A stretch of DNA of 64,000 bases from the IMG/VR virus record IMGVR_UViG_3300028172_000069. One strand, given 5' to 3'. Position 1 is the stretch's first letter; each line of letters begins with the position of its first letter. The notes beneath the pieces are model-generated. The model made no database searches. It worked only from the letters and a program-made list of their open reading frames with translations, and had not been told where the DNA came from. Shown piece by piece: positions 10,861 through 30,858 of the stretch. The position numbers and the translations under genes were made by a program. Source of the DNA: a virus. Its lineage: Duplodnaviria > Caudoviricetes.

Positions 10861-11748
10861 TTATGCAGCTTGAATGTCTGCTGTCTTTGTATTCGGGAAC
10901 GCTCGACCAGTACCCCAAATCAAGCGGCAAGCGCCATTTTGTGCAGCAGTTCCAGGCCCAGAGGAGCCGGCGCCATAGTAAGGGCCTGGGGACGAACCTG
11001 GGACACCGTGATCAGACCTATTAAGCGGTACTCCATTTTCAGCCTTACCTTGCAATCCAACACCGCCACCTATGTAACTACTACCTCCGGACCCTGGCAT
11101 TGACACACCAGTACCGCCACCGCTATCGACGTCTGGAGCACCACCTATATTCCATGAGTAATAACCAGAAGTACCGGAACCGCCGTTACCTCCTTTACCG
11201 CCGTTACCTGTGTAGCCTGCTGCTCCGCCGCCTCCGCCACTTGACGCATCATTCGGACCAGACCAAGAACCACCAAATCCACCATTACCACCGTTGCCAC
11301 CACCTTTGTTTGTCAACGACACATGATGGGTGTAAGTACCTCCAAGGCCTCCAGGCCCACTGCCATTTGAAAACGACCCTGCGCGTCCATGGCGACCAGA
11401 TGTTGCAGCCATAAGCACGACACCTTTGCGGGATACGCTAGTCACCACGGTGCTAACAGCATTGTATATGGCCGTAACTTGCGAGGCTTGACCGACCACG
11501 ATATCAAGAACTTCGCCGGGTGTTACTGGAATTTCGTTGGCCCAGCATAAGGCACCACCGCCACCGCCACCACCCATGCGGCGACCATTTTCTCCGCTGC
11601 CTGCTCTACCGCCAGGGCCTACGCACACGGCACTAAGCATAGTGACCCCGTCGGGTACAACGAACTGTCGAGATTCGAGAATCGTGATCTGGCCAATTGG
11701 TTGTCTTGGGACCAAGCTGGGGGATTGTCTAGGAATTAGAGTCAGCAT
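10861..11748 (-). CDS. glycine-rich putative fibre/adhesin protein (paralog A)
   Basis: MLTLIP start; FVVPDGV..VCVGPGG...GGGGALCWAN.IPVTPG Gly-rich phage fibre domain; C-term RLIWGTGRAFP. Confidence 0.75.
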   Translation of the reverse strand: MLTLIPRQSPSLVPRQPIGQITILESRQFVVPDGVTMLSAVCVGPGGRAGSGENGRRMGGGGGGGALCWANEIPVTPGEVLDIVVGQASQVTAIYNAVSTVVTSVSRKGVVLMAATSGRHGRAGSFSNGSGPGGLGGTYTHHVSLTNKGGGNGGNGGFGGSWSGPNDASSGGGGGAAGYTGNGGKGGNGGSGTSGYYSWNIGGAPDVDSGGGTGVSMPGSGGSSYIGGGVGLQGKAENGVPLNRSDHGVPGSSPGPYYGAGSSGPGTAAQNGACRLIWGTGRAFPNTKTADIQAA

Positions 11749-11850
11749 TGTACTTCCTGTGGGTGCCTTTAACACCCGTGCGTCGCATCTGCGAGGTGAT
11801 CGCCGTAAGGAAGGCACCGTTCCAGACAGCTTTAGATCATGTTGCGTCAG

Positions 11851-11867
11851 TTTTCGATTACACGTTT
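11851..11867. repeat. 17-bp direct repeat copy 1 (TTTTCGATTACACGTTT)
   Basis: Identical 17-mer at 12681-12697. Confidence 0.9.
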
Positions 11868-11871
11868 GGTA

Positions 11872-12669
11872 CTAGGCAGCTTCTGTAATGTCCGCTGTTC
11901 TGGTTTTAGGGAAGGCGCGACCTTTACCCCAGATGAATCGCACAGCGCCACCTTGAGCTTCCGCACCTCCAAAGAATGGACCCGGTGGGGAACCGTTAGC
12001 TTGCGCAGAGTATCCGGTGAAGCTGCCTTGACCGTTTGTTCCTTGGCCTTGCAAACCTACGCCTCCGCTGGCACTACCCTTGTTGGAGCCGCCGCCTCCA
12101 CCTGCACCGACACCACCGCCGACCGAGCCATTAGCAAAGCCACCGTCACCCGCATATCCACCAGCGCCACCAGCTGAGGGTGGAGCGCTACCTGACGTCA
12201 TACCGTTAGAGCCCGCGGCACCCTTACCACCACCCCACGTACCTGCAGGCAAAGTAGATGTGAACGTACCGCCAGCACCACCCGTTCGCTGGGGAGTGCC
12301 GCCATTGGCTGAGTTCCCATTGCCGCCATTCTTACCTGCACCAGCGCGCAGTATGACGGTGCCGTTGACTGCGATGGTCGTATCTGTCTGACTTCCAAGG
12401 GTACCAATCTTTACTTCGATGGTATCACCAGGGTTAACAGGTAAGGAGTTTGCCCAACATAGTGCACCGCCTCCACCAGCACCTGCGAAGTAGGTTACGC
12501 TGGGAAAACCAAAGACATAGTTGGCACCACGAGTACCACCTGATCCCACCGCTACGACGCAAAGATTCTCAGCTCCGTCTGGAACAGTGAAGGTTTGCGA
12601 AGAGGTCAGCGTCTGCTGTCCAACAACCGTCGATGGCATGCTTGACTTGACTGGGATTAGCGTGAGCAT
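11872..12669 (-). CDS. glycine-rich putative fibre/adhesin protein (paralog B)
   Basis: MLTLIP start; TFTVPDGA..VAVGSGG...GGGGALCWAN; C-term RFIWGKGRAFP; clear tandem paralog of 10861-11748. Confidence 0.8.
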   Translation of the reverse strand: MLTLIPVKSSMPSTVVGQQTLTSSQTFTVPDGAENLCVVAVGSGGTRGANYVFGFPSVTYFAGAGGGGALCWANSLPVNPGDTIEVKIGTLGSQTDTTIAVNGTVILRAGAGKNGGNGNSANGGTPQRTGGAGGTFTSTLPAGTWGGGKGAAGSNGMTSGSAPPSAGGAGGYAGDGGFANGSVGGGVGAGGGGGSNKGSASGGVGLQGQGTNGQGSFTGYSAQANGSPPGPFFGGAEAQGGAVRFIWGKGRAFPKTRTADITEAA

Positions 12670-12676
12670 CCGTTCC

Positions 12677-13138
12677 TCACTTTTCGATTACACGTTTACG
12701 GTTGGAGAGCGTGCAGGAAACGCTGATCCAATGTTCCTTGTGCTGCAGGACGTCGAAGTCCTTGAGCGATTTGATGAACGCGAAGATGGCGTCGTTATCA
12801 CCACGCAGGCATACAGCTTGCGCGGTGTAGTGCTGCTTCATCGCCAGATACTCTTGCCACTGCTGTTCGCGGATGGGCTTCTTGTTCTCGATACACCACA
12901 TGGCGAACGCTTTGCGGCTGTACTCGCGCTCCAGGTTCTCGCAGCGATACCACGACGTGATGTACTGCGGCCCAAGCTCAGCCCACAAAGGCTCAAGCAC
13001 TTTCTCGGCAAGCAAGGCCGCGTTGTCTGCGTAGTCCTGATTGGGTACGATGTTGTCGATGCCAAGGCGGAATGCCGTTTCGTCGAACTGGACGTCGTAC
13101 ATGGTGAAGCTCTTGCTGATCTGAATACGGTTGTCCAT
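12677..13138 (-). CDS. peptidase M15A-like protein with altered Zn ligands
   Basis: ISKSFT...TAFRLGIDN...LAEKVLEPL...ITSWYRC...QH; the expected Asp and second His are replaced (AVC, WISVS). Confidence 0.7.
   Translation of the reverse strand: MDNRIQISKSFTMYDVQFDETAFRLGIDNIVPNQDYADNAALLAEKVLEPLWAELGPQYITSWYRCENLEREYSRKAFAMWCIENKKPIREQQWQEYLAMKQHYTAQAVCLRGDNDAIFAFIKSLKDFDVLQHKEHWISVSCTLSNRKRVIEK
12681..12697. repeat. 17-bp direct repeat copy 2
   Basis: Identical to 11851-11867; overlaps the 3' end of the M15 gene. Confidence 0.9.
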
Positions 13139-13605
13139 TACATCACCAGGAAAATGCCCATGAATATGATGACTGCCTTGTGGATCAGCAGCTCGGTTGT
13201 GAGTTCGCGGTACTGCTGGCGTCGCTGGTTCTCGGTGTCAGCGTAGCGCTCTGCGTAGTAGTTACCACGTTCCTCTTCCAGCTTGAGATTCTCCAGCATC
13301 AGGTTGCGCTGGGTCACCAAGCCGTTGTGCGCTGTGAGCAGTAACTGCAACGCTTCGGTGTTCTGCTTGGCTGCTTGCCGATAGGCATTCAGTTGGTTCA
13401 TCCCAGCAGTGTCCAGAGTGGCGAAGCGCTCCTCGCCAATCGTCTGAATCTTGATCTGGGGCACCGCAGGTAGATCGACAGCTTTGGCGTTGAGACTGTC
13501 CACTGGAGCCAACGCGCTGTAGCGATCACTCTTGTCTGGCTGCACTTGGGTCATGCTGCACCCAGTGAGTACGCTCAAGGCGAGCACTGCCAATACCATT
13601 TTCAT
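13138..13605 (-). CDS. spanin-like lipoprotein with C-terminal hydrophobic anchor
   Basis: Lipobox VLTG-C, coiled-coil middle, C-terminal AVIIFMGIFLVM; within the lysis-like cassette. Confidence 0.6.
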   Translation of the reverse strand: MKMVLAVLALSVLTGCSMTQVQPDKSDRYSALAPVDSLNAKAVDLPAVPQIKIQTIGEERFATLDTAGMNQLNAYRQAAKQNTEALQLLLTAHNGLVTQRNLMLENLKLEEERGNYYAERYADTENQRRQQYRELTTELLIHKAVIIFMGIFLVM

Positions 13606-13656
13606 GTTCGTTACCTGTGCGAAAACCCGCAGCACGGTCAGCACTGCGGGTCCTGG

Positions 13657-14055
13657 TTATGCGCTTTTGGGCGCGTCGGGTAGTTGCTGGACGATTTCCT
13701 GCATCTTCGCCTCTTGCACTTGGATCGCAGCCTCTTGGCGAGCGATCACGTCAGCGGCAGCACCGGTCACAGGTACCTTGTTGAGCAAGTTGTCGCACGC
13801 AAAGCCAATGGCCATGTACGTCAGCTTGGACGACTCAGGGTCTGTGATGATGGTGAACGCAAACGCTGCAATCGTACCGATGATGGCAGTCTGCGAGCGC
13901 ACTGGGTTTGTGGTCCAGTAAGCCAGCAGCCCGATATCGAGTTCACGACAGCGCTTTGCCCAGTTAATGAGAACGCCAATGACAACGCACAGGAAGTACG
14001 TCAGTGCCACGGCGGGTTCGACACCAAGTAGCCCTTTGACTGCCTCGGTTATCAT
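13657..14055 (-). CDS. putative holin
   Basis: Small protein with 2-3 hydrophobic segments and a charged C-terminus, next to spanin-like and M15 genes. Confidence 0.5.
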   Translation of the reverse strand: MITEAVKGLLGVEPAVALTYFLCVVIGVLINWAKRCRELDIGLLAYWTTNPVRSQTAIIGTIAAFAFTIITDPESSKLTYMAIGFACDNLLNKVPVTGAAADVIARQEAAIQVQEAKMQEIVQQLPDAPKSA

Positions 14056-14066
14056 GTTGTACGCTC

Positions 14067-14369
14067 CTACTTATCCTCGTTCCAGTTGCGCACAGCATCG
14101 TCCAAACTCTTGTCGGGAGTGACGGGCTTTGGAGCCAGGGTCTGTTCGATCTGCGTGTGTTGGTCCTTTATCACGACCTGCTGTTGCTCCAGGTCTTTGA
14201 CGTTTTCATCCGCCTTGGTCATATCTGGTGGAGGTGGAGCAGTCACAGTTGAGCTACTACCACCCTTGGGAAAGGCGCGCACAACAACCGCTACTGCCAC
14301 CCCGAGCAGCAAAGCTCCCAACCACTTGAGCCACTTCACGGAAGAAGTCAACGCACCTTTAACGTCCAT
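14067..14369 (-). CDS. bitopic membrane protein, i-spanin-like
   Basis: N-terminal TM WLGALLLGVAVAVVV, Pro-rich linker, short coiled coil. Confidence 0.5.
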   Translation of the reverse strand: MDVKGALTSSVKWLKWLGALLLGVAVAVVVRAFPKGGSSSTVTAPPPPDMTKADENVKDLEQQQVVIKDQHTQIEQTLAPKPVTPDKSLDDAVRNWNEDK

Positions 14370-14371
14370 AG

Positions 14372-14569
14372 CTATTCACCTTCTCGATAGTGCTGGTGAG
14401 ACGCACGCTTGAGCACCCGATGGAGCCGGCGAGCCAGATCACCTTGGATTGCCCGAGATTGATCTTCAAACTCAGGTTCACGATCAGCTTCCTTCTTGCG
14501 CTTACCCTTGGGCAGTTGCTTCTGGAGCCGGGCTTTTACTGGTGGTAGAATATCGAAACTCACGTTCAT
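14372..14569 (-). CDS. small basic hypothetical protein
   Basis: 65-aa K/R-rich ORF downstream of a TAATTTA motif and hairpin. Confidence 0.5.
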   Translation of the reverse strand: MNVSFDILPPVKARLQKQLPKGKRKKEADREPEFEDQSRAIQGDLARRLHRVLKRASHQHYREGE

Positions 14570-14617
14570 GGCATACGTCCGAAAGGATAGTCCATAGCCA
14601 AGCATCTGACTATGGAC

Positions 14618-14624
14618 TAAATTA
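14618..14624 (-). promoter_or_regulatory. TAATTTA motif (putative late promoter) followed by a hairpin at 14589-14618
   Basis: Intergenic, ahead of the lysis cassette; AGTCCATAG...CTATGGACT inverted repeat immediately downstream. Confidence 0.5.
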
Positions 14625-14625
14625 T

Positions 14626-17223
14626 TCAGCCTAGTTTGGACCGACCCTTTTGGGCAATGCGGAAATTGCGGAGTGAAATGTCGCTACTCCACACGACCTG
14701 ACCACTACTCCCACCAAGACGACGGTTGAAGTACATGACAGAAGGGGTGTCCAGCTGAATGTCGATCGGGAACGCGAACTCGCCGATCATCACACCGTCA
14801 ACCCAGCATTGCATCATACCGTTGTCACGGGTAATCTGCATTTTGTACCACTTGTTCATCTGCACTGGGAAGTCGTACAGGCGATAGAAAGTCGCGTTGC
14901 CTCCGTGGTCGGTTGACAAATAGAAGTAACCGTTCGTGGTGTTGTACTGCACTTCCCAGTTTACCAACTTGCCAGGAGCAGCCCAAGTACCCCAATATAC
15001 CAAGGTAATCATGGACGTGCCCGCTTGAGACGCAGCCGTAGCGCAGTTGAATTCAATATCAACCGTGAAATCTGTGGTGCCGAACACCATAGAACTTGAC
15101 GGTTGAATTGACAAATACGAACCTGCAGGTAAGCGGACGAAGCCGTCGTTGTAGACAGGAGAGCCGTACGCCGACACGAAGGTCTCCAACTTACCATTTG
15201 TTACCAGAGGAATCACGTCAGGAGTGATGAACTCCAAGACAGGACGCCAAAGTTGGCTGGCTACAGCGCCAGTGTTCGACGAGATACCAGCGATAGCGTT
15301 GTTGGTACCACGACATACACGCGATGTGGTTGTTGTTGACAGGTACTCTTGGCACCATGACCCAGGCACATCCAAACCCAGCTCTTCATTGGTGAAGGCA
15401 GCCCAACGAGTAGCTGCTGAGGCGCTCACACTCACGCGATTCATCAGCAACGTCCACTCAGATACAGACGCACCCGCAGCACCGTTGCCAGTGTAAGGGT
15501 TCTGACTTGCACCTGTGGGGAGGCGAACGCGGAAGTGCCCACCAGCAGTCGTGATGCGAGTAGTCTGCTGCACAGGGCTGGATGAAGGCAGCGGCTGTAC
15601 GCCAGTACCCGTCTCCAGACCATAGACAGCACCTGCTTGGTAGAGCGCCTGCCACGAGATACCGGTGCGCAATGGCTTCTTCGGAATAAACAGGATCTTT
15701 CCGTCGAGAGCAAACTTCAACCATGTAGTGTCAGCATTGACGGGCGTACCTTCGGTGAGTCCGAGATACGTCGCAAGATCAACACCTTGCATGACCTCAC
15801 TCATTGGCACTTCACCAAAGTAACCCTGGTTGAAGTTACCGGCGATTGGCTTCTGTGGACCTGGGCCGTTGTATGGCGTGCGCACGCGCGGCAGTGCTAC
15901 ACGCGGACGCCCGATGTTACCGTTGTAAAGCGCTTTCGCTGCGATGCGAATGTTGGTGACGTGCAGGGCGTCCGAGTTTGCCGGAAAGCTGTCCCAGTTG
16001 TCGCGCAGGCCCCGAACTGTCGAGTTGTTGATTATGGGCAGAGGAGCGTTCATCTGCCCAACAAGGTCACCGTCGAAGTACATGGAGACGATGTTACCGA
16101 CCTTCTCTACTACGACATGGACGTCCGCACCGTACTTCGGAAGAAGCCTGTTTGCGTTGAACGCATACGTCGAAGTGCCAGAGTAAACATAGGCAAACTG
16201 GAGCTGCAACGCACCAGTGAAGAACAAGCACCACGAGTTACCGGCTTGCCCACCGTACGCCCACTGTGTGATAACGCCACACTGCCCGTTACCCATAGCT
16301 TGAGTGATGCGGAACTTGCACTCAATGGTAAAATCACCTGCACCAAAGTACGCCAATGGGGCCTCGAAGCGAGACGACGAAGGCTGCTGCGTGATGATGC
16401 GATTCCACTGCATCGCAGCGGTACCGGAGAGCGTGAAAGGCTCGCGGGTGATTTCGTTGATAAACTCGTTACGACGGAAGCTGGCCTGAAAAACAATGCC
16501 GCGCTGCTCTTCCTCAGTGTAAGTCTCATACACCAGAGCAGGCAGTTCTGTAGGTGGAGTGAATGGTCCGTTGTACGCGGACTTGCCACGCATCATACGG
16601 ATGTTCCAGCGCTTACCGATGGCCCCGCGGCGAATGCTCATCATTTCGGTCGACAAGAAGCCTGCGGTACTGTGCGGACCTTGATACTTGATCTGACCGT
16701 TGACGTAGATAGTCAGCACACCGTTGACACGGCATGCAGCAATGTGCGCCTTGGGTTGCAGTAGCTCTGGAATGTTGGTGATGGTAGCGTCACCTGCACC
16801 ACCACGATTACCTGTGGACGTCAGCAGGAAGTTGATGGCTTGTGCAGGCAGAACCGCGAAGTACATGGAGATATTGCCTTCACCGCCAGCACCGAGCATG
16901 TCCAAAGACAAGATGGTACCACCATACTGGCTGACCGAGGTGAACGCTACCCAGCTTTCGATGCTGAAATCTTCGTTCGCCTTGATGTACGGTGGAGGCA
17001 TACCGTTGAGGGCAGCATCTGTGGTGTTGGTCATCAACAAGGTGCTGTCGCTGGTATCAATCGACGCACCACTGCCCAGGGTTAGCAGCGTCTCACTACC
17101 TTCATCCAGAGGCAATCCTTCCTTGAACGTAAGTTGTGACCAGACGTACTGATTGTTCGGAGGTGGCCCACCCGTGTTCCTTTCGATCGGCCAAAGAGAG
17201 TAGCGAGGTATGAGAGACAGCAT
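14626..17223 (-). CDS. multi-LamG (concanavalin A-like) putative virion fibre/adhesin
   Basis: MLSLIPRYSLWP start; three LamG-like repeats (DFTIE, F.G.DFTIEC, HV.v...G....YfDG) plus a GYFGEV...WLKFALDGKILFIPKKP domain recalled from phiKZ-like virion proteins. Confidence 0.8.
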   Translation of the reverse strand: MLSLIPRYSLWPIERNTGGPPPNNQYVWSQLTFKEGLPLDEGSETLLTLGSGASIDTSDSTLLMTNTTDAALNGMPPPYIKANEDFSIESWVAFTSVSQYGGTILSLDMLGAGGEGNISMYFAVLPAQAINFLLTSTGNRGGAGDATITNIPELLQPKAHIAACRVNGVLTIYVNGQIKYQGPHSTAGFLSTEMMSIRRGAIGKRWNIRMMRGKSAYNGPFTPPTELPALVYETYTEEEQRGIVFQASFRRNEFINEITREPFTLSGTAAMQWNRIITQQPSSSRFEAPLAYFGAGDFTIECKFRITQAMGNGQCGVITQWAYGGQAGNSWCLFFTGALQLQFAYVYSGTSTYAFNANRLLPKYGADVHVVVEKVGNIVSMYFDGDLVGQMNAPLPIINNSTVRGLRDNWDSFPANSDALHVTNIRIAAKALYNGNIGRPRVALPRVRTPYNGPGPQKPIAGNFNQGYFGEVPMSEVMQGVDLATYLGLTEGTPVNADTTWLKFALDGKILFIPKKPLRTGISWQALYQAGAVYGLETGTGVQPLPSSSPVQQTTRITTAGGHFRVRLPTGASQNPYTGNGAAGASVSEWTLLMNRVSVSASAATRWAAFTNEELGLDVPGSWCQEYLSTTTTSRVCRGTNNAIAGISSNTGAVASQLWRPVLEFITPDVIPLVTNGKLETFVSAYGSPVYNDGFVRLPAGSYLSIQPSSSMVFGTTDFTVDIEFNCATAASQAGTSMITLVYWGTWAAPGKLVNWEVQYNTTNGYFYLSTDHGGNATFYRLYDFPVQMNKWYKMQITRDNGMMQCWVDGVMIGEFAFPIDIQLDTPSVMYFNRRLGGSSGQVVWSSDISLRNFRIAQKGRSKLG

Positions 17224-17299
17224 AGGTGGGTTCTCTTAGAGTCGAATAATGGTATCCGGTCAGATGACGTGGGGCTCGTCCTTGAGCCGTGGATTGTCC

Positions 17300-20200
17300 T
17301 TACACGAAGTCGAAGGACACCATGCGCCCTTCTTGCAGCGTACCCCAGAACGAAGCAGCTCCGCTCCAGTACACGGACGTGCCTGTACCCATTGAAGCCA
17401 GCGGGGTTGTGAAACCGCTGTATGGCTGACCACTTAGGTTACCGAACCGCGTACCGTTTATCTCCAGCGTCTCCGTCCACAGAGGGATATCCGGAGTTGG
17501 TGTGATGTTCGTCACCTCCCAGCCAATAATCATGTAGTTATTGCGGTCAATGAACAGGCCTTTGATGCGGCGCACGACTCCGCCAACCTGCCAGAGCTTC
17601 TGCGAGCAACTGCCCAACGAAATCCAGCCGACTTGAGACGTGTAGTCGCTGTTCTCCATGTAACCGTAGAGCGTACCGACACCACCTTGATGGAACCCGA
17701 GAGTGATGTGAGGCTTGGGCTTACGCACTCGTGGATACTGCGGGAACTTAGGCACGTTGCCTTTGTACTGCGACACCTTAGAGCAACGCAGATCACGCAA
17801 GACTCCAGCGTAGGAGCTAATGTCACCGCGCTGAATTGCTATAGGCGATTGTCCAAAGTTGCCAGCGTAGGTTGCAGTAGCACTCGGCACACCATCGACA
17901 TACAGCGTGATGGTAGACCCGACGCGTTCAACAACCACGTAGTATTCCACACCAGCGACAGCCGTGATCGTTGACTCCAGCACGACCAGATCAGTCAGCG
18001 CAGCACCAGTCTTCGACAACACAGCGCCAATGTGACCGTTCATGATGCGGAAGTGCCACGAGTTGTCACTGCGCGAGTTCAGGAACTGACCGATGACGGA
18101 GCATGGATTGGCTGCAATGGTGTTGAACAACATGCGGCATTCAATCGTGAAGTCGGCTGCCATGAATGGCGGCGTAGTCTTCGAGAACTGGAATCCACCG
18201 CCGTTTGGAATCTGCAACTGGTTGTTGATTATCACTGCACTTCCCGAGACAGCAACATACGCCGAGGAGATTTGCTCGATCGGGTTGCTGCCGTTGAACT
18301 GCGCAACGACGTTTGCCTGATCGCTCTCGGAGTAGCGACGATCTGGGAACGCTGGGAAGCCGTTGAGCAGCACAGGCTTCCCGTTGTACATTGCCTTGTC
18401 AGCAATGCGAATGTCCCACATCTGTCCGGTACCAGCCCAGAAGTTACCTGCGGCCGACGAGTTGGAGATTGTACGAGGCATACTACCGCGAATCGGGTAC
18501 GGGATATTGGCAGACGTGGAGTCTAGCAGCACGCCTGTGTACGCATCCAGCAGGTAGATCGTAATGACACCACTAACACGCTCAACGATGATCTTGTAAG
18601 ACAGACCATTGGTTAGCGCCAGCTTCGAGATAACGTAGGTTGCGCTGGAGCCAGCCGCGTTCTGCGCGATGCCAAAGTATACCTTGCGGTCATTACCGAT
18701 GCTGAATGCCCAACGGTTACGTTCGTCCGTTGCTGTACCGTAGTACCACTCAGCAATCAGGATGCCTCCGTTTGCATTTGTTGCCGTAACGAGCAGCGAC
18801 GCTTCTAGCGTGAAGTCTCCAGCACCCCATGGGTCAATCTGCATCTGATAGCAGTTAGCAGTCGCCGACTGTGTGCCACCGAAGTAGATACGACCACGGC
18901 GCACGTAGCAGTTGGCGTAACCCAAGAAGGTCAGCGCACGTCCAGATGCAACGTTGTGATTGGAGTCTCGACGCATATCGAACTGGCAGCGGATAGCAGC
19001 CGCATCTTCATCCGAGTAGACAGTGCGAACGTGCTCCATAGGTGCCAAATCAGGCGTGAAGCTCTCGGTGTGTCGGCAGATGCCGCGGTCGATGTAGAAG
19101 TTGCGACGCCAGCCGTTGAAGCCGTTGCTGGAGCCAGTCATACCCAGGCTCAAGCCTTTGACTGCTGCCTGCTGCGCCTGACTTGCACCAGTGTCAATCG
19201 CGTTGATGGTCTGCTTGACACCGTTGTAGAAGATGTACAGAACACCGTTCTTGCGACCCAACTCAATGTGGAAGTCCACGTTGGCAGCCAGTGTCAGAAC
19301 GCCTGATGGGATCACTGCAACTTGGGTCCCGTCTGCCTTATAGAACCGGAACAGGAAGTTCTGGAAATTGGTAGCCCAGTTGCAGTACCAAGTACCACGT
19401 CCACCTTGCGCATCACCCGAGAAGATGTGCAGGTCTTTACCCACGTTTGCCGCAAGCTGGGTCGCAGGCGTGAGCGTGATACCCACAGTGAAGTCTTCGG
19501 TGCCATCGAACAACACCATGTCGTCTTCGTACAGACCTTGGCCGTCGGACGTTGTACGCATACGCTGATTGGCAAGCGTAGGCATTGTGTTCCACGACGT
19601 CATGAATTTCTCGGTCACGTCGTCGATGTGCTCATTGTCCTTGAACGACACAAGACGCCAGCGGTACGCATCGCCGATGGTGTTGATAACGCGCTCGCGG
19701 GTACTCACGGTGTTGAACGCTGATCCTGCCGTGTACGCAAGACCCCACGTGGTCCAGTCCGTCGAGGTGAAGATTTTGGTACCGCCAACGATGAACGAGT
19801 TCTTGTCGTAGGAGCTAATGTCCGAGAGCTTTTGCCCAGCACCGCCAAACATGGTGGTCGTGTTCGGCAGCGTTTGCCAGTTGTCACCATCGACACCGAA
19901 GAAGATCGTTGGGCCGCTGCCGGTATTACCTACAGCATAGAACGCATTGCTGTTGGCGTTGTAGCTCATACCGCCATCAACCATGTCTTCGTTGCTGCCG
20001 CCGTTACGTGTCTTCGTCCAGACGCCGTCTTTCTTGCGGTTGATCGACGCACCTTGTTGCAGCGAAGCTAGGGTAGTTGCACTGCCTGCGATGGCCGACT
20101 GGACAATGTAGGTCGAACCCGAGACAGCGTTCTCGTTGACAGCCACGTAGCCCGTACCGTTCCAGTTGAACACGGTGTAACCCGCACCCGATGCGCCACC

Positions 20201-20674
20201 GTTCTGGTAAATCTTGCCGTCAGCATCCCAGCGACGCGCACGCCGCTTGAAGTAGTTGGTGTGCATAGAGGAAGCGTTGATGCGCGTCCACGTAGCGCCG
20301 TTGTCCGTAGTGTAGATACACATACGGTTATTGGTGATGACTAGAAAACGACCAGCGTCATATACAATCGACGCTTGTGCCATTGGCACGTTAGTTATGA
20401 TATCCGTAGAGACCGTGAGCTTAGTCCACGTCACGCCGTCGTCAGTAGACTTCAGGATCGTGGAACTTGCGCCGACAATCATCCAGACGCCACCACCATA
20501 TGCTGCCATGTGCAGTTCAGTAGTGACACCAGACGCGGGTTCCGTCCATGTAACGCCGTCGGTAGTACGAGCGATCAGGCCATTAGCACCGACTGCGATT
20601 GTAGTGAATCCTTTCTGGGTCTTCAAAGGTCTGGCGATTGGCCAGAGTGAAAACTTAGGGATGAGTGAGAGCAT
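17300..20674 (-). CDS. beta-propeller + triple LamG putative virion fibre/adhesin
   Basis: MLSLIPKFSLWP start; BNR/Asp-box-like TTDGVTW and STDDGVTW repeats; three LamG-like domains; C-terminal tip domain. Confidence 0.8.
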   Translation of the reverse strand: MLSLIPKFSLWPIARPLKTQKGFTTIAVGANGLIARTTDGVTWTEPASGVTTELHMAAYGGGVWMIVGASSTILKSTDDGVTWTKLTVSTDIITNVPMAQASIVYDAGRFLVITNNRMCIYTTDNGATWTRINASSMHTNYFKRRARRWDADGKIYQNGGASGAGYTVFNWNGTGYVAVNENAVSGSTYIVQSAIAGSATTLASLQQGASINRKKDGVWTKTRNGGSNEDMVDGGMSYNANSNAFYAVGNTGSGPTIFFGVDGDNWQTLPNTTTMFGGAGQKLSDISSYDKNSFIVGGTKIFTSTDWTTWGLAYTAGSAFNTVSTRERVINTIGDAYRWRLVSFKDNEHIDDVTEKFMTSWNTMPTLANQRMRTTSDGQGLYEDDMVLFDGTEDFTVGITLTPATQLAANVGKDLHIFSGDAQGGRGTWYCNWATNFQNFLFRFYKADGTQVAVIPSGVLTLAANVDFHIELGRKNGVLYIFYNGVKQTINAIDTGASQAQQAAVKGLSLGMTGSSNGFNGWRRNFYIDRGICRHTESFTPDLAPMEHVRTVYSDEDAAAIRCQFDMRRDSNHNVASGRALTFLGYANCYVRRGRIYFGGTQSATANCYQMQIDPWGAGDFTLEASLLVTATNANGGILIAEWYYGTATDERNRWAFSIGNDRKVYFGIAQNAAGSSATYVISKLALTNGLSYKIIVERVSGVITIYLLDAYTGVLLDSTSANIPYPIRGSMPRTISNSSAAGNFWAGTGQMWDIRIADKAMYNGKPVLLNGFPAFPDRRYSESDQANVVAQFNGSNPIEQISSAYVAVSGSAVIINNQLQIPNGGGFQFSKTTPPFMAADFTIECRMLFNTIAANPCSVIGQFLNSRSDNSWHFRIMNGHIGAVLSKTGAALTDLVVLESTITAVAGVEYYVVVERVGSTITLYVDGVPSATATYAGNFGQSPIAIQRGDISSYAGVLRDLRCSKVSQYKGNVPKFPQYPRVRKPKPHITLGFHQGGVGTLYGYMENSDYTSQVGWISLGSCSQKLWQVGGVVRRIKGLFIDRNNYMIIGWEVTNITPTPDIPLWTETLEINGTRFGNLSGQPYSGFTTPLASMGTGTSVYWSGAASFWGTLQEGRMVSFDFV

Positions 20675-20908
20675 AAGCACCTACTTGCATGGATTGGTGC
20701 GTTGTTGGGATTGACCATTACGCAGTGTTGAAATTACACCACCTGCTTGAACTTAGGGAAAGACCCATGTGGTAATACGGCACCGCACACAACCAAGAAT
20801 GTGATCTTCAAGTAGTGCAGACTCCAAATCCGCAGTTCAAACGTTCTCCGGTCTAGTTACAAGACAGGGCGCGAAGCGTGGTACAAATATCGGCAGTGTG
20901 ATTACCTA

Positions 20909-22363
20909 CTATGCTTGGATTAATTCTATGGTGTAGGTCTCACCGTCAACGAAGTCAGCGAGTGTGTTCCACCAACTGTATATGGTATTACCTAGACCGA
21001 CCTGCGCAGTAATTGTTGAATTAAGGTCGAAATAGAACCATTTACCATTTGCCTTGATCCCTTTGTACTTAGCACGAATATCCGCGTGCGCTCCTGTGAT
21101 TTCTATGGAGAATCCGTTATACCCGTTGTTACCTGAGGCCTGTATCCAATCACAGCAAATCCGAACACCTTCACCTGTCGTGTTTTGAATCGTACCCGCG
21201 TTACCTGCAAGCCCATAACTGCCGTTTGTGTTGTCCACATAACCAGTTGAGCCCAAGTTAGCGTCACTGCCGACTTGCCTGCCTGCAGTAATGGTGAAGG
21301 CTTTTGCGATTTTCTCCTCAACCTTCCAGATGTTGGTCTTGGTAGTTGAGTTGGCAGTAAACAGGCTATGCGTGACAAAGTGCTGCGATCCCCAGCGGTA
21401 ACCCGCTTGGAAAATACCAGAGAGCTTGTCGATGGTCTTCCAGTTCTTTACCGAGAGGTCATCAAGTAGCGCCTTGATTTTGGCTACATAGGCTGTTACC
21501 TGCGCTTGTGTCGCGTTAGGATCGTCAGGTTGCGGCGCGAGTGAGGCGATCATCAGGGTGTTGTTTTTCACGAGGAACAGATACTTGTCAACGTGGGCGA
21601 TGGATTGGACTCCATATGGTCGCATGTCCAACAGGCCTGCAGTCTGACCCTGAGTGGGGCCTACATACAGCAGCATCTGCTGGTTTGTGCTCTGGAACCC
21701 ATAGAACACGTTATACCCGAAATACACGTAACGGGCATTTGAGGTCACACCCATACTTGGACCCAGCCCACCGTACTGAATAAACGTTGGGAAGTTCCAG
21801 CAGACGAACACGTTGCTGCCAGATGCTGACCAGGATGTGGAGCCGACTAAGGCATTCTTGCTCTTACCCCAGTAGTACGGGTCGACTGCGGGCGGTGAAG
21901 CGGTAGACTTGACCGTCGCCGTGCCTGACATATCTTTGGAGTTCGGCCGTGCCTCATAAGCGTTCTGGCTAGATCGGATGATCTGGTAGACCAACTCATT
22001 TTTGAAGGCGGTTAGTGAGCCGTGTCCGTACGTACTACCTGCCATCTTGGTAGTGAAGGTCTTACCGTCTGTGGCTAGCTGGGAGATACTCGCAACGGAT
22101 CGGCTCGATACCAACTTGTCCCCGACAGCGTAGAGTGACGGATAGGGAACACCAGTGTTGAAGTTTGTGGATTCAAATTGGAAGTTCGGGTCAATTCGCT
22201 CCACTGGTTGGTTAGGCGTATAGAACACATTGGGATCGTGGTGAAGCTGATAGTTCATACCAAGATCGCTGATCCTAGCCTTTGTGTACGTGCCGAGAAG
22301 TGATACGTCTTGCCCAAGTCGATCTTTGGGCCAGAGAGCAAAGCGAGGTACTAGGCTAAGCAT
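20909..22363 (-). CDS. putative virion fibre/receptor-binding protein
   Basis: MLSLVPRFALWP start after AGGG RBS; beta-rich; C-terminal domain resembles that of 17300-20674. Confidence 0.75.
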   Translation of the reverse strand: MLSLVPRFALWPKDRLGQDVSLLGTYTKARISDLGMNYQLHHDPNVFYTPNQPVERIDPNFQFESTNFNTGVPYPSLYAVGDKLVSSRSVASISQLATDGKTFTTKMAGSTYGHGSLTAFKNELVYQIIRSSQNAYEARPNSKDMSGTATVKSTASPPAVDPYYWGKSKNALVGSTSWSASGSNVFVCWNFPTFIQYGGLGPSMGVTSNARYVYFGYNVFYGFQSTNQQMLLYVGPTQGQTAGLLDMRPYGVQSIAHVDKYLFLVKNNTLMIASLAPQPDDPNATQAQVTAYVAKIKALLDDLSVKNWKTIDKLSGIFQAGYRWGSQHFVTHSLFTANSTTKTNIWKVEEKIAKAFTITAGRQVGSDANLGSTGYVDNTNGSYGLAGNAGTIQNTTGEGVRICCDWIQASGNNGYNGFSIEITGAHADIRAKYKGIKANGKWFYFDLNSTITAQVGLGNTIYSWWNTLADFVDGETYTIELIQA

Positions 22364-22380: not shown

Positions 22381-22414
22381 AAAAAGGGTCGGCAGCCGTG
22401 AGACTACCAACCCT
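22381..22414 (-). terminator. Rho-independent terminator
   Basis: AGGGTTGGTAGTC-TCAC-GGCTGCCGACCCT followed by TTTT on the minus strand. Confidence 0.8.
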
Positions 22415-22418
22415 GGTA

Positions 22419-22949
22419 TTACGCTGCGGCTGTGACGTAGCAGCAGGCTGGCTCACTTACTTGTCCATAAGCATTGACCATTCGGTAGCTGAACGAGTCA
22501 TTGCCCGTGAAGCCATTACTGACATACGACATACGCCGACCATCGTTGCTCACACGCGCTACACCATTCTGTGGTTGCCCCAAAATCTGAGGCCAGAACG
22601 GTATGGACGTGACGAACGAGTTACCTTCTGCCTGTACCATGTTGCTGGTGACGTTGATCGTGGTGTCTTCAAACGGAAGGATTTCCGAGTAGACGCGCAC
22701 AATGTAGTCCCCAGGTTCCCGTACAACCAGCTTCCCATCCTCGAAGTAATACTCAGGGAAGAATCCCTCTTCGCGGTTGAGCGTGATCCCGTCAAGCGTG
22801 AACACGTCGAACATATTGCGGTTGATCGGTACCATGACCAGATAGTCGGTGAACGACGTGTCCTGATAGCTGACACTGCGCGCCTTTACAAGCCCGCGCA
22901 GATTTGCCGTGATGGGTTTGGCGTAGCGGAATTGACTTTGAGTAATCAT
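22419..22949 (-). CDS. virion protein with C-terminal Ig-like (Big_9/cadherin-like) domain
   Basis: QPQNGVARV..DG..MSYVSNGFTGNDSFSY..V.AYG pattern. Confidence 0.7.
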   Translation of the reverse strand: MITQSQFRYAKPITANLRGLVKARSVSYQDTSFTDYLVMVPINRNMFDVFTLDGITLNREEGFFPEYYFEDGKLVVREPGDYIVRVYSEILPFEDTTINVTSNMVQAEGNSFVTSIPFWPQILGQPQNGVARVSNDGRRMSYVSNGFTGNDSFSYRMVNAYGQVSEPACCYVTAAA

Positions 22950-25903
22950 CAGCCACCTCTCACATAGCCGAAACGTTTCTTGAACTCAGGCTGCGTGACA
23001 GGGCACGACGCGGCGACAGCTACTGGCAAGGTGACGAAAATCCACTTGCCGTCGATCTGACGATACTCCACTTCCAGCTCAAGTCCCAACGTGGCGACGT
23101 AAGCCTCAGCCTGTGCTTGTGTTGCAAACACACCGCGCGATTCGTCGGCCATGGTGTAGCTATTACGCTTCGGCGTCTCGAACGACGGTGCGGCTTTGGC
23201 CACTTCCTTGATCGAAGACACGTTGCGCACGTAAGCCATGGGTTGCTCAGAACGAGTGAGCGCTTGACGCCGCTCATACGCAGTGTTTACACCATAGGCA
23301 ACACGAGGCGGACGCATAACGAAGCTCAGCGACACCTCGATGCGCTTGTTGTTCGGACGCAGACCCTCGATGAAAGGCATCGGAGAGAACGCCTGACCAA
23401 GCGTGTGATGACGCTGGTAGATCGCATCAACAAAACTCACTGGGTAGCGGTAGAACTTGTCCACACCCATAGTGAATTGCCACGCACGGCTCACTTGAGG
23501 CTGTTCCCAAACAGTATCCAGATACATCGGAGCGTTCAGGTGATCCAGCTTGATCTCCATGTCGCGGTACATCGGAGCCTTGGCGGCATAGCGATAGTAC
23601 GCAAGCGGGCGATACCGTGGAGTGCTCAGCGGAGTCTGCTTGTACGTCAATGGTGAATACTGCGGCGCGTTCAGGTGATTAAGCCTGAAGTTGTCCTTCA
23701 CGTCGATCTGTACCAGCTTGACTGTAGCCACATCGCGGCTGAACTCAGACGGTGTGTATACCGTCTTGCCGAGGTAGGAGCGGTTGGCGTCCCAGGCACT
23801 GAACAGGATCAGCTTGTCCCAATGCGTGCGCTGGGCTTCGGCTTCTGCCTGCACCTTAAGCACTGTCTGGGAAGGTAGGCGATCCGCGGTCTGGAGTTGC
23901 GACTTGGCAAATTGCGACTTGGTAAGTACCGGTGACGGCACAGCGTTGAGCTTGATGATGCGAGTCTTGTCGCACACTGGCGAGTACCCATCAGCGCTCA
24001 GCACTGTAGGTTGCGTGCTTACATCAGGCTCGTCGGCAGTCCAGCTCTGCACCGAGTTGCTATCGTACCAATCACCGACAAGCGGCTCATTACTCACACG
24101 CTCTGGCGGCTCGTACACAACGGTCAAACCACGAGGCACATCGACCACGTTCTCTTCCCAGACCAATGCGCCGTTAAGCTGCATCATCAGGATTGTCCAC
24201 GTCGCCACAGGCTTGTCGTACACGGTGTTGATGGTGTACGCAATACGCTGCGCCAAGAGGCTTACTGGAGTGGCGTGAACCACAACAATGTCACCGTTCT
24301 TGATCGTGCCTGTCTTACCGAAGTCACCCCCGTTGACGCTGAACTCGATGATGGATTCATCGGTGTCAATGTCCACGCTGAACCCGTCAGTCATACCTTC
24401 GACAGCGAAGAGGTCCTCGTATTGCACGCGCGGCAGAGCATCGTTCACTTGGTCAAGCGTGCTCAACGTTGGGAACAGCTTCGGCTCGGTGCGCAACTGG
24501 AACGTGGTTGCCCGACGGCCCATGAACGTGACCGCTTGCGCATCGTAGTACGACGCCCGTGCCGGTACGCTGATCTTTACCACGTCGTCTTTCTTCAGGT
24601 AACCCGAAGTCCACGGAAGACCGTTGACCGTGACCGTCGCGTTCGTGGTGCCAAGCTTGACAAACTCTGGGCGAACCCAGTTGACTGTCCACGTGTACTC
24701 ATACGCGGCGTTGTACGGCACGTTCTCCACGATGGTCTGCACAGGGCTGACGTTCGCTTCCGCAGAGGTGACGTCCGCAGCATCCGAATACAGGTCGGTG
24801 ACAACAACCTCGCCCATGTAAGCAGCACCAGCCGACCGCACAGTGGTAGCGACGTCGGTCGCATTACCAAGTGTTTGGTCATACTTGATGATGCCAGTGG
24901 TGTCGAGGAAGGACACGTAGATTTCACTGCGGTAGACCACTACGTCCAGAGGAACCTTGGAGTAGTAGACCGTCTTCTCCAGTGCCTTGGAGTTGCGGTT
25001 GATAAGCAGCAAACAACGGTTCGTTGCGTCAACCGCATAGACGTATACATCGTTCAGGTCCATGTCGAAGTACAAACCTGGGCGAGCCAGAATCTGCGTC
25101 ACGGTGAACGAACCTGCAACCCGCGCAACTGTGGTGATACCCGAAGCCATGCCCAGATAGAGCAGGCCAGAGTTGTCGCACACAATCGAGGTCAATCCAG
25201 TGAACGTGCCAGTCTGGGTATACAGCAGCGCGCCCGCGTTGCTCCAGACTTCGATACGGTCAGCGAAGCCGATGACAATGTTGCCTTCCATGTCGCCAGT
25301 GGCAGCCAGAGGCGTACCAGTCAGCGTGTAGGACGAGTCAACGGCGAACAGGTTGGTGAGTTTGTACAGCTTGCCAGCAGTGACCACCCAAGGCACGGCA
25401 GCAACGTTGTCAGCTTCGCTCCAGATAGGAGAAAAGGTGATCGCGACAGGTGTTTCCGCAAAGGTGAGTTTCTTCACCTCGTCGGCAGTGTTGAAGAACC
25501 AGATTTCCTTCTTGGCGTAGTCGATGGATGCGACTGCATCGGCAACGGTGAAGGTTCCGGTGGCTGCGTAGGACAGTTGCTTGCTCGACCCTGGCTTGTA
25601 CAGCTTGCCATAGGTAGAGCCGGTGATCGCCTTGTACGCCTGGGTAGTGACGTAACGCAGAGTCTTTGGCAGGTCAACGAACCAGAGGTAAGTCTTCCCG
25701 GCGAGAACCACGCTAATCTCGGCGTATGCAGTCACGGTAGTCGTGAGACGTGCCGTGTCACCTTTCGTAACCTGAATGTCCGTATTCGCAGCGTAGTCTT
25801 GGCCCTTGTACGTGACCACGCAACCCGCTTTCAGAACACCAGTGGCGTCTAGGGTTACGTCTACGTAGGTTGAGCCAGAAGCCAAGCTAACTGGAATAAA
25901 CAT
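22949..25903 (-). CDS. large virion structural protein with beta-propeller and beta-sandwich repeats
   Basis: 984 aa; YVTN/NHL-like strands (YVYAVDATNR, VVVYRSEIYVS); SVNGG repeats. Confidence 0.7.
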   Translation of the reverse strand: MFIPVSLASGSTYVDVTLDATGVLKAGCVVTYKGQDYAANTDIQVTKGDTARLTTTVTAYAEISVVLAGKTYLWFVDLPKTLRYVTTQAYKAITGSTYGKLYKPGSSKQLSYAATGTFTVADAVASIDYAKKEIWFFNTADEVKKLTFAETPVAITFSPIWSEADNVAAVPWVVTAGKLYKLTNLFAVDSSYTLTGTPLAATGDMEGNIVIGFADRIEVWSNAGALLYTQTGTFTGLTSIVCDNSGLLYLGMASGITTVARVAGSFTVTQILARPGLYFDMDLNDVYVYAVDATNRCLLLINRNSKALEKTVYYSKVPLDVVVYRSEIYVSFLDTTGIIKYDQTLGNATDVATTVRSAGAAYMGEVVVTDLYSDAADVTSAEANVSPVQTIVENVPYNAAYEYTWTVNWVRPEFVKLGTTNATVTVNGLPWTSGYLKKDDVVKISVPARASYYDAQAVTFMGRRATTFQLRTEPKLFPTLSTLDQVNDALPRVQYEDLFAVEGMTDGFSVDIDTDESIIEFSVNGGDFGKTGTIKNGDIVVVHATPVSLLAQRIAYTINTVYDKPVATWTILMMQLNGALVWEENVVDVPRGLTVVYEPPERVSNEPLVGDWYDSNSVQSWTADEPDVSTQPTVLSADGYSPVCDKTRIIKLNAVPSPVLTKSQFAKSQLQTADRLPSQTVLKVQAEAEAQRTHWDKLILFSAWDANRSYLGKTVYTPSEFSRDVATVKLVQIDVKDNFRLNHLNAPQYSPLTYKQTPLSTPRYRPLAYYRYAAKAPMYRDMEIKLDHLNAPMYLDTVWEQPQVSRAWQFTMGVDKFYRYPVSFVDAIYQRHHTLGQAFSPMPFIEGLRPNNKRIEVSLSFVMRPPRVAYGVNTAYERRQALTRSEQPMAYVRNVSSIKEVAKAAPSFETPKRNSYTMADESRGVFATQAQAEAYVATLGLELEVEYRQIDGKWIFVTLPVAVAASCPVTQPEFKKRFGYVRGG

Positions 25904-25922: not shown

Positions 25923-25954
25923 AAAAAGGGAGCTAAAGATAGTCTTTAGCCCCC
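25923..25954 (-). terminator. Rho-independent terminator
   Basis: GGGGGCTAAAGA-CTA-TCTTTAGCTCCC-TTTTT after gene 25968-26963. Confidence 0.85.
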
Positions 25955-25967
25955 AGTGAATGCCGAA

Positions 25968-26963
25968 TTAGACGGCTTCAGGTACACCGCCACCCGACAC
26001 GAGGAGCAGCAGACGCATGCCGGCGTTGTTCGGCTTGTTGGCCTTCATCGCGCGGTAGATACGATCCGAAGTCTCACCGTAGACGCGAACCGGGATTTCC
26101 GATTCTTCGCCGATCACGTCAGCCGAGGTGTACGCGAACAGGTCGAGTTCCTCGGTGTAAGCGTAACGGTCGGTGTTCAGACGGTTCGGGAAGGTCACCA
26201 GGTACTTGTTACCCTTGGCGATTGCAACCTGATCCTGACTGTTCAGGATCGCCGCGCTGTTCACCGAGTCGGCGTCAGCCGGCTTGCTGATGGATGGACG
26301 GAAGACGTCCTTCTCGTTGACAACGAACTTCATCGGGCCCGAGGTATCGCACTCGTAGACCACGAAGATCGGCGAGTTGTCGGTGATCAGGGCGACACCG
26401 GTGTCCTTGTTCACAGGAACTTGGACGTTGAAGAAGCTGTAACGCGGGTTGGCGTCGGAAGCATCTTCCCAGACGAACAGGGTGATACCGCGTGGGGTGG
26501 CTACCAGCAGGTAGGACAGGGTAGTACCCAGGTCGTAGCCGCTGTTCTGCACGTCACGGTTGATGAAGGTGTCGCCGATCACAGGCTGCGGTTTGGTCCA
26601 GGAAGTACCCAGCTGACCCATGACACGAGTACCATTGATATCTACGCCCGAACCTGGGAACGAGGTGACGGCACCCGCAGTGGTGATCTGCTGTGGGTTG
26701 GCAATTGCCATCTTGATCTTGCCCGCACCAGCAGTAGCGCCCGACAGGTCGAGCAGCAGACGCCATGGTTGGGTTTCGTTCAGTGGGTTGACGCCCGCCG
26801 AAGAGTCGAAGACGAACTTGCCTGCACCACTGGTGACAGAGAAGTTCTGGCCCGAAGCCGGCAGAACCTGAGTCAGACCCGCGCTTTTCAGGTCGGCGAA
26901 CAGTGCGGTCGCGAACTGATCGAGACCTTGCAGTTTGGACTTCTTGTAAATCTTACCAGCCAT
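25968..26963 (-). CDS. probable abundant virion structural protein
   Basis: 331 aa, strong C/G-ending codon bias, GGAG RBS, own terminator. Confidence 0.7.
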   Translation of the reverse strand: MAGKIYKKSKLQGLDQFATALFADLKSAGLTQVLPASGQNFSVTSGAGKFVFDSSAGVNPLNETQPWRLLLDLSGATAGAGKIKMAIANPQQITTAGAVTSFPGSGVDINGTRVMGQLGTSWTKPQPVIGDTFINRDVQNSGYDLGTTLSYLLVATPRGITLFVWEDASDANPRYSFFNVQVPVNKDTGVALITDNSPIFVVYECDTSGPMKFVVNEKDVFRPSISKPADADSVNSAAILNSQDQVAIAKGNKYLVTFPNRLNTDRYAYTEELDLFAYTSADVIGEESEIPVRVYGETSDRIYRAMKANKPNNAGMRLLLLVSGGGVPEAV

Positions 26964-30066: not shown

Positions 30067-30858
30067 TCAGGAAGCGATCTCTACGATTTGGATACGAGGG
30101 TTGGATTGCAGCTCGGTGAGCAACCTCCCAAGAGGCTGATCGCCAACGACAACTCCGTTCTTCAACGCAATATCGTCATCCGTGTAGTTTTTGATGACCA
30201 CTGGGACAACGATATCAGGTAGCAAGACCTTGTCGAGGTAATGCGTGAGTCGTTCCTTGACGATGAAGATGTTGGTCTTCTTGTAATACTCAAGGTCGTC
30301 CACGCCGATGTACGTGATCAGGCTATCAACCTGACTTCGGTTCGACGTGATCGTCTTGGGCACCAAGTTGGAACCAAGCAGGCAGTCGACCTCGTAGAGT
30401 TCAAACAGGGTCGACTGCAATGCTCCTACTAAGGCCTCGATGATCTTCGGATAGGCCTCAAGGTGCGACATACCCACAGTAGCACGGACCCGACGCTTGA
30501 AGTTGTTCGGGATGTGCTTATGCACCGCGCCCCATACCTCAAGGAACTGAGGCAGGAACACGTCGCTGTGGATTTTGAAGATGTGCTTGTTCGAGTTGAT
30601 AATCTCACCAAAACGCTGGAAGATTATCTGGATGTCCGATTCATCCACGGTGTTGCGATTGAGCAGCAGGCTTTCCACCTTGGTAGCCCAGTCAGAGTAG
30701 CTGTTGAAGAACAGCAACTGGATTTCGCGGGCGACCTGGCTAAACTGCTTCCGTTCGTCGATCAACTCAGTCAGGATGAATGACTTGGAGTTGTAGTAGC
30801 GCTCCAAAGCCTTAGAACTCACAGAACGAAAGCGTATGTTGTTAAGCACGTAGGCCAT
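30067..30858 (-). CDS. hypothetical cytoplasmic, largely helical protein
   Basis: 263-aa ORF; no signal peptide or TM. Confidence 0.75.
   Translation of the reverse strand: MAYVLNNIRFRSVSSKALERYYNSKSFILTELIDERKQFSQVAREIQLLFFNSYSDWATKVESLLLNRNTVDESDIQIIFQRFGEIINSNKHIFKIHSDVFLPQFLEVWGAVHKHIPNNFKRRVRATVGMSHLEAYPKIIEALVGALQSTLFELYEVDCLLGSNLVPKTITSNRSQVDSLITYIGVDDLEYYKKTNIFIVKERLTHYLDKVLLPDIVVPVVIKNYTDDDIALKNGVVVGDQPLGRLLTELQSNPRIQIVEIAS

Follow-up and report, generated by a model that had tools for sequence, protein, structure and literature searches.

A short N-terminal peptide shared by diverse adhesin-like proteins of a PaBG-like jumbo phage is a candidate docking signal for a β-propeller protein

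We analyzed a 64,000-nucleotide (nt) stretch of viral DNA from IMG/VR record IMGVR_UViG_3300028172_000069 (here referred to as the window; positions 69297 to 133296 of a 137,684-bp contig that is ~52% complete), in which five minus-strand genes open with the same short peptide, ML(S/T)L(I/V)P, and then continue into differing bodies. This peptide (here referred to as the tag) is N-terminal, is under purifying selection at the peptide level, and precedes many types of body in about ten jumbo phages related to the Pseudomonas myovirus PaBG. We consider it somewhat better than an even chance that the first ~15 residues form a docking peptide whose most likely socket is a β-propeller in a 984-amino-acid (aa) protein encoded nearby. 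In this model, the unstructured tag would attach differing lectin-like adhesin modules to one shared virion component at the tail or baseplate periphery of a PaBG-like jumbo myovirus, most likely on one face of the seven-bladed propeller in the N-terminal half of the 984-aa protein (positions 22949 to 25903). Bodies could then be gained, lost, or swapped behind the tag, leaving the rest of the virion untouched.

The motif had been noticed in the letters of the window, and all five N-termini are present as described, with ATG codons at 22363, 20674, 17223, 12669, and 11748. Searching the window for a degenerate DNA pattern that encodes M-L-[ST]-L-[IV]-P gave five matches where 0.05 would be expected, and none of 100 shuffles contained as many. 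The genome-wide motif search that had been proposed as a check returned only those five gene starts in the whole contig, and a reversed-pattern control over the same 137,684 bp gave no matches. The possibility that the true starts lie elsewhere is answered by three observations. Each of the five ATGs has a Shine-Dalgarno-like, purine-rich run 5 to 10 nt upstream. In-frame stops 2 to 6 codons upstream of the tag occur in 10 of all 24 tagged genes, three of the window's five among them, and the tag is therefore truly N-terminal. Finally, the GenBank and RefSeq annotators picked the same starts in the PaBG orthologues. The tag had been given a length of 6 to 12 residues; the shared start holds, but in three of the genes the motif extends to 15 residues (MLSL[IV]P[RK][FY][SA]LWPxxR), while the two Gly-rich genes have a short variant, with only MLTLIP and a looser S/P-rich stretch in common. 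The consensus across the aligned tags of related phages is MLSLIPxxAPWPxxR (~15 residues).

The three long-tag genes encode adhesin-like proteins. Gene 1 (20909 to 22363; 484 aa) carries tag MLSLVPRFALWPKDR at 22319 to 22363, and its weakly propeller-like body belongs to no Pfam or PHROG family; an Atlas look-up gave low-confidence propeller-like hints only. In gene 2 (17300 to 20674; 1,124 aa), tag MLSLIPKFSLWPIAR at 20630 to 20674 is followed by a BNR/sortilin-like propeller of ~320 aa (weak Pfam matches, below the cutoff) and by LamG arrays from about residue 337; an orthologue on the related contig G001 is 46% identical and has the same tag. Gene 3 (14626 to 17223; 865 aa; tag MLSLIPRYSLWPIER at 17179 to 17223) has a LamG array that begins immediately behind the tag and a central domain that matches PHROGs labeled virion structural protein. 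The short variants, MLTLIPVKSSMP at 12625 to 12669 and MLTLIPRQSPSLVPR at 11704 to 11748, open Gly-rich proteins of 265 aa (11872 to 12669) and 295 aa (10861 to 11748), respectively, both assigned to phrog_4474. These two matches begin at profile positions 133 and 136 of 407, meaning that other phages carry ~132 further profile positions ahead of the Gly-rich domain, where the tag sits here. The description of the bodies as unrelated was thus broadly right, except that the Gly-rich pair are paralogues (39% identity) and that genes 2 and 3 both have LamG arrays, in different register relative to the tag. Calling the genes fibers found no support; the bodies are lectin-like or propeller domains.

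The 176-aa protein encoded just upstream of gene 1 has homologues in 16 clusters, which led to eight further loci; together with PaBG and two IMG/VR contigs, we could align 24 tagged proteins from about ten PaBG-like jumbo phages. All 21 long-form tags have M1, L2, and W11; P12 is present in 20, and P6 and R15 are each present in 19. Mean identity of the tagged proteins is 65% over residues 1 to 12 versus 8% over residues 16 to 39. The short variant, MLT(L/N)(I/L)P..S, lacks W11-P12 and is found in the two Gly-rich window proteins and in one Gly_rich_2 protein of the relative G002. Across the set, the tag is joined to LamG directly, to a propeller of ~320 aa, to F5/8C, to ~230 to 450 aa of unique sequence, or to a Gly-rich domain. 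Bodies in the relatives consist of F5/8C plus LamG, or of 200 to 450 residues of unique sequence and then LamG, and a degenerate form of the tag precedes a fibrinogen-like domain.

This conservation resides in the peptide. When the DNA of seven tagged starts is aligned, just 11 of the 141 columns are invariant; over the 24 tagged genes, six Leu codons are used at position 2 and all four Pro codons at positions 6 and 12, Ser is encoded as both TCN and AGY, the DNA flanks of the tag are unconserved, and the upstream DNA is unrelated. Selection therefore acts on the peptide. The motif does coincide exactly with gene starts, the sites of module junctions and of ribosome binding, as would suit conservation at the nucleic acid level (a recombination box or a translation-initiation or other RNA element) or a functionless relic of duplication. 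However, the varied codons and few invariant columns exclude a recombination box or RNA element, no DNA run is long enough for homologous recombination, and a relic would not keep 65% identity while the next residues drop to 8% across about ten phages. An explanation of this kind is largely refuted already, and we consider it very improbable.

The tag appears to be confined to this group of phages. In IMG/VR, a strict 12-residue DNA pattern matched only PaBG and one 277-kb contig, and the 176-aa protein used as a query found two loci only; tblastn of the 984-aa protein against cultured phages found PaBG only. A looser tag pattern run over the JGI metagenomes gave 54 loci, nearly all of them chance or internal matches, such as a MFGLIPLPASWP motif inside a repeated reading frame of ~166 residues. 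The only true cases in that scan were the G001 contig and one short contig (L074), one of which was additional. With so little gained from a metagenome-wide scan, we assign the tag to a narrow clade. A motif search of the full-text literature yielded nothing relevant.

The tagged genes adjoin a conserved structural module. PaBG (Baikalvirus) is the only nucleotide relative among cultured phages, with 74% identity over 28357 to 30051, and, read from 30858 toward 9022, the gene order of the window matches that of PaBG genes 256 to 279. Along this stretch, the conserved structural module is followed by the variable adhesin-like genes, a lysis cassette (M15 endolysin, lipoprotein, and membrane proteins), and a NUDIX gene. 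The module encodes proteins of 331 aa (25968 to 26963), 984 aa (22949 to 25903), and 176 aa (22419 to 22949), all on the minus strand, with the 984-aa gene two genes upstream of the tagged genes. In all nine tag-bearing relatives, the tagged genes start directly downstream of this module, and the 176-aa gene is their immediate upstream neighbor in 9 of the 11 close relatives checked. We infer the mapping of PaBG gene numbers to locus tags; on that mapping, the 984-aa protein is the orthologue of gp262, the 331-aa and 176-aa proteins are the orthologues of gp261 and gp263 (34.8-kDa and 18.9-kDa virion bands, respectively, by size match), and the product of 28357 to 30051 is the orthologue of gp257 by matching size and locus tag. 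PaBG gp257, gp261, and gp263 are Coomassie-visible virion proteins (PMC7412058, Table 1).

Structure prediction (AlphaFold2, with Foldseek comparison) gives residues 1 to 575 of the 984-aa protein (24179 to 25903) as an immunoglobulin (Ig)-like domain, a seven-bladed β-propeller, and an Ig/PKD-like domain, at a predicted local distance difference test (pLDDT) value of >90. Residues 576 to 917 are variable and modeled at low confidence, and the small C-terminal domain is conserved. The family is tiny, with 36 representatives in 1.8 billion proteins, and a search of BFVD with the 984-aa model found only uncharacterized jumbo-phage proteins.

The original prediction had listed 22949 to 25903 among candidate hubs, and a complex prediction places the tag there. 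In one controlled job, four chains were combined (984-aa protein residues 1 to 575 and 900 to 983, the 176-aa protein, and gene 1 residues 1 to 39 as the partner), each with its own alignment, alongside three controls. The complex scored 0.81 (0.81, 0.79, and 0.81 in three runs), while the best of the three controls scored 0.00. In calibration, the score mark was met by 58 of 80 solved complexes and 2 of 110 mismatched pairs, counts that are only a rough guide here because the use of own alignments and four chains makes this job unlike the calibration. At least 88% of contacts are common to the runs, and the partner pLDDT is at least 55. Confident contacts involve tag residues 1 to 15 only and the N-terminal propeller domain of the 984-aa protein only, within residues 89 to 368 (24800 to 25639). 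Tag residues 2 to 6 are modeled along strand 121 to 125 and tag residues 8 and 9 against residues 160 to 168, and further contacts recur about every 40 residues (183 to 185, 242 to 243, 279 to 284, 319 to 324, and 357 to 368), as expected for one face of a propeller. When the propeller chain was replaced, the score fell to 0.00, indicating that the modeled tag finds no substitute for it in the 176-aa protein or in the C-terminal domain of the 984-aa protein. The model thus supports binding of the tag to the propeller but does not show it.

Short linear peptides bind β-propeller faces in other systems, including the colicin TolB box on TolB and WD40 and Kelch-motif complexes. A disordered peptide of ~10 to 16 residues containing Trp and Pro that lies across one propeller face is common to those complexes and to our model; the likeness is an analogy only, as the proteins are unrelated. 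Within the 984-aa family, the contacted motifs DxVA[SA][IV]D (residues 121 to 127) and PRW (residues 158 to 160) are retained across the PaBG-like clade, and most of a distant clade has lost them. The one distant locus with enough flank (L029, whose 984-aa homologue shows 27% identity over matched stretches) lacks both motifs and the tag, and its downstream genes have no obvious alternative shared tag.

Several results weigh against docking of the tag on the propeller. The modeled interface residues are no more conserved than the rest of the domain (0.61 versus 0.58; P = 0.23). Co-occurrence of motif and tag is imperfect, since two loci (L024 and L025) have the module and the PRW motif with no tagged gene in the available flank and a third (L028) likewise has both with no tagged gene in 2.5 kb of downstream flank. 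The complex job was unlike its calibration, the alignments behind it were shallow (18 to 33 rows), and the sockets offered to the model came from the 984-aa and 176-aa proteins only. Among the 14 bands of the PaBG gel table (PMC7412058, Table 1), none is gp262 or the tagged gp270 or gp271, and neither the PaBG paper nor its supplements give virion data for the latter two. One socket for three to five competing ligands would also be unusual, as the known branched systems give each receptor-binding protein (RBP) its own site. Finally, the tags of the two Gly-rich genes have no W11-P12, and these genes are located on the far side of the lysis cassette; their products may not use the same site.

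Some of these points would suit a tag that is a docking peptide for a different virion protein, the modeled propeller groove normally binding something else. Candidates would be another adhesin, a wedge protein of the baseplate (baseplate proteins are encoded at 44221 to 49886), or the 176-aa or 331-aa module proteins, which are abundant. Coomassie staining of PaBG virions shows the orthologues of these two module proteins, whereas that of the 984-aa protein is not listed; the 176-aa gene directly precedes the tagged genes in most close relatives; the modeled interface is not specially conserved; and the model had only the 984-aa and 176-aa proteins to choose from. On the other hand, with the 176-aa protein and the 984-aa C-terminal domain both present, the tag was modeled on the propeller only, and one-to-one binding of adhesins to the 176-aa protein predicts PaBG gel bands of 100 to 130 kDa, of which none is listed. 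We judge a different socket to be unlikely, though the least unlikely of the alternatives considered here, and favor the propeller.

Two of the module proteins have further features of their own. The 984-aa family ends in a C-terminal motif, RFGYxGGG, with several positions invariant or nearly so in a 33-row alignment. In every close relative, the stop codon of the 984-aa gene shares one base with the start codon of the 176-aa gene (22949 to 22951), which suggests translational coupling. The 176-aa protein is predicted by AlphaFold2 (pLDDT of 84) to form two Ig-like sandwiches, for which Foldseek returned generic tandem-Ig matches only (E > 0.001). Its residues 1 to 12 are near-invariant (M-L/I-T/S-S-x-V-F-R-Y/F/H-A-K-P), and F7, R8, A10, K11, and P12 are invariant in 18 homologues. 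This N-terminus is predicted to be disordered (pLDDT of 42) yet holds the invariant motif FRxAKP. It bears a loose resemblance to the adhesin tag and may likewise serve in docking.

One relative carries the structural module twice. In L023 (5842 to 18809; the same phage as L017/L018 and G002), the module copies encode proteins of 326/1,037/176 aa and then 330+355/1,019/176 aa. The first copy is followed by the Gly_rich_2 protein with the short tag variant, and the second is followed by two adhesins with the variant long tag MLGLIRKFAQWP. This duplication is a natural experiment for tag-socket specificity.

In the docking model, the tagged adhesins would be borne on the virion and would bind host receptors. 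The lectin-like domains (LamG, BNR-like, and F5/8C), typical of external adhesins, point that way, as do the location of the genes at the end of the tail/baseplate cluster and the PHROG matches of the gene 3 central domain. Against it, the tagged proteins are not among the 14 bands of the PaBG gel. With virion presence putative, the proteolytic processing of PaBG virion proteins and the interleaving of the lysis cassette with the tagged genes would also fit nonvirion proteins, either released at lysis or internal to the particle, with the tag acting as a capsid-targeting, protease-recognition, or export leader. The alignment argues otherwise. A capsid-targeting sequence (CTS) or prohead-protease leader of the T4 CTS-like or phiKZ-like kind, as carried by head-internal proteins, would end in a conserved protease site with Glu at P1, but tag positions 1 to 16 contain no conserved Glu, and the tagged bodies are adhesin-type domains from the tail module. 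Sec, Tat, and lipoprotein signal features are likewise missing when the alignment is read directly: Pro occupies positions 6, 10, and 12, Arg occupies position 15, and there is no hydrophobic stretch or h-region, Cys, or twin Arg. A leader on nonvirion proteins therefore seems to us improbable.

A tag that acts only transiently is a further alternative to lasting attachment; it could be recognized by an assembly factor or chaperone, or it could aid folding or solubility. Chaperone genes often follow phage fiber genes, and a conserved gene of 222 to 230 aa is the last of the adhesin cluster in PaBG, G001, L020, and L022 and comes after the 176-aa gene in L024. However, the window's contig has five tagged genes yet no homologue of this candidate chaperone; a common folding role is unlikely, given how the bodies differ in fold; and the model places the tag at a specific site on a structural-module protein. 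We rate a transient role as quite unlikely, only slightly less so than a leader on nonvirion proteins. The 222- to 230-aa protein starts with MKLKLF or MKLSLAF, is encoded at L016 7418 to 8098 (minus strand), PaBG_00272, L020 16477 to 17166, L022 17914 to 18603, and L024 10615 to 11283, and is a possible assembly factor. In L024, it comes directly after the 176-aa gene, with no tagged gene seen.

The claim that varied modules dock through a peptide on a common hub thus stands in part: the conserved peptide, the varied domains, the adjoining structural module, and the model all favor it, while presence in the virion and a requirement for the tag are only inferred. As a principle, docking of this kind is not new. 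In phages K1-5, K1E, and SP6, a conserved N-terminal hepta- or undecapeptide attaches the tailspikes to the adaptor gp37 (Leiman et al. 2007, summarized in PMC6872550). In the KP32/K11/KP34, Menlow, and PhiK64-1/RaK2 groups, a conserved peptide of RBP2 docks on the RBP1 branching domain (PMC6872550; tested in PMC13352976). The peptide, which can be as short as 7 aa (MALxxLV, in KP34-type RBP2s; PMC6872550), is the sole docking element. In KP32, its deletion abolishes RBP2 incorporation, whereas its fusion to a foreign enzymatic domain gives incorporation (PMC13352976), which is the display use that the original prediction had raised for the tag. Docking by a short conserved N-terminal peptide is therefore already established, and what is new here is the instance and the partner fold, not the concept.

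The PaBG-like proteins resemble those of K1-5, K1E, and SP6 in having a very short conserved N-terminal peptide (7 to 11 aa in that system) on otherwise unrelated receptor-binding proteins, a pattern seen here in 24 proteins, and in the proposed use of a separate adaptor that lets specificity modules be exchanged. They differ in the remaining elements. K1-5, K1E, and SP6 are small podoviruses with two peptides, two sites on a T4gp10-like adaptor, and trimeric enzyme bodies, while the PaBG-like phages are jumbo myoviruses with one 15-mer on three to five proteins, LamG, propeller, or Gly-rich bodies, and a predicted propeller socket. In KP32, K11, and KP34, the partner is a T4gp10-like branching domain inside the primary RBP; none was detected next to the tagged genes, and neither the 176-aa protein (tandem Ig-like) nor the 984-aa protein (Ig plus seven-bladed propeller) looks T4gp10-like. 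A search of the contig with PF07880 (T4 gp9/10) gave no match, which is uninformative because the controls were equally silent and the contig is ~52% complete. The tag sequence is unrelated to the KP32/KP34 peptide, whose docking has been tested by experiment, whereas that of the tag is predicted, and the bodies are lectin-like rather than the trimeric depolymerases of the KP32 and K1-5 types. Ackermannviridae (CBA120-type) carry complexes of four tailspikes on one branched hub, with conserved N-termini and variable bodies (PMC13352976). They share with the PaBG-like phages several receptor-binding proteins of that design, but their conserved N-termini are whole folded domains of at least 100 residues with positions of their own and not one shared 15-mer.

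The known systems thus have one dedicated site per protein, whereas a PaBG-like genome has one tag for up to five proteins, which implies equivalent sockets for which all the adhesins of one phage would compete. The fullest form of this idea, in which the propeller face is a universal socket and an RBP branching site unrelated to T4gp10, contested by up to five adhesins with the same 15-mer, is possible but doubtful in our estimation.

Other features of the region include three collagen-like genes on the minus strand (33892 to 34701, 38545 to 39060, and 39073 to 39768), whose MLTRVP and RLTRVP starts had been likened to the tag. We rejected them as family members: their LTR[VI]P start belongs to a separate, homologous N-terminal globular domain of ~78 residues, which precedes the Gly-X-Y repeats and is conserved with PaBG gp236, gp239, and gp240. 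The lysis cassette (12677 to 14605, minus strand) lies between the three long-tag genes and the two Gly-rich short-tag genes and encodes an M15-type endolysin, a lipoprotein with an LTGC lipobox-like motif, and membrane or holin-like proteins. Two strong terminator-like hairpins are present on the minus strand, one of 13 pairs plus a T run between the 176-aa gene and the first tagged gene (22385 to 22414) and one of 12 pairs plus a T run just 3′ of the 331-aa gene (25928 to 25954); they could set expression ratios in the structural module, although promoter-like and terminator-like sites show no enrichment over shuffles across the region as a whole. Two functional labels look unreliable: the 331-aa protein (25968 to 26963) is called tail sheath by phrog_12249 and RefSeq, which is doubtful because the sheath proteins are gp213 and gp76 according to the PaBG paper, and the 263-aa protein encoded at 30067 to 30858 (minus strand) is called ABC transporter by phrog_19088 and RefSeq and lacks Pfam support. 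Another paralogue family lies 3′ of the 176-aa gene in some relatives (L019 10471 to 18198, corresponding to PaBG_00264 to PaBG_00268; L021 12573 to 16353; and L025 14281 to 18727) and is absent from the window; its N-termini read M-[RK]-[ILV]-x-K-[IL], often followed by FG..G.LY.GD.

Engineering of jumbo phages is difficult, and little is understood of the apparatus with which they recognize their hosts. The 15-residue tag defined here and its candidate socket (residues 1 to 575 of the PaBG gp262 orthologue) provide a testable model of how several adhesins may be mounted on one virion, and PaBG is in culture. What sets the PaBG-like phages apart is the jumbo myovirus setting, a single tag on as many as five lectin-like adhesins, and a socket predicted to be a propeller in place of a T4gp10-like domain. 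If the model is correct, docking peptides would be a feature of a jumbo myovirus as well as of small podoviruses, and the principle would gain a non-T4gp10 socket fold. It would also raise the question of whether virions carry mixed adhesin sets; if the adhesins do compete for one universal socket, single PaBG-like virions would be mosaics with mixed adhesin sets, a form of bet-hedging in host recognition, and any protein given the 15-mer could be displayed.

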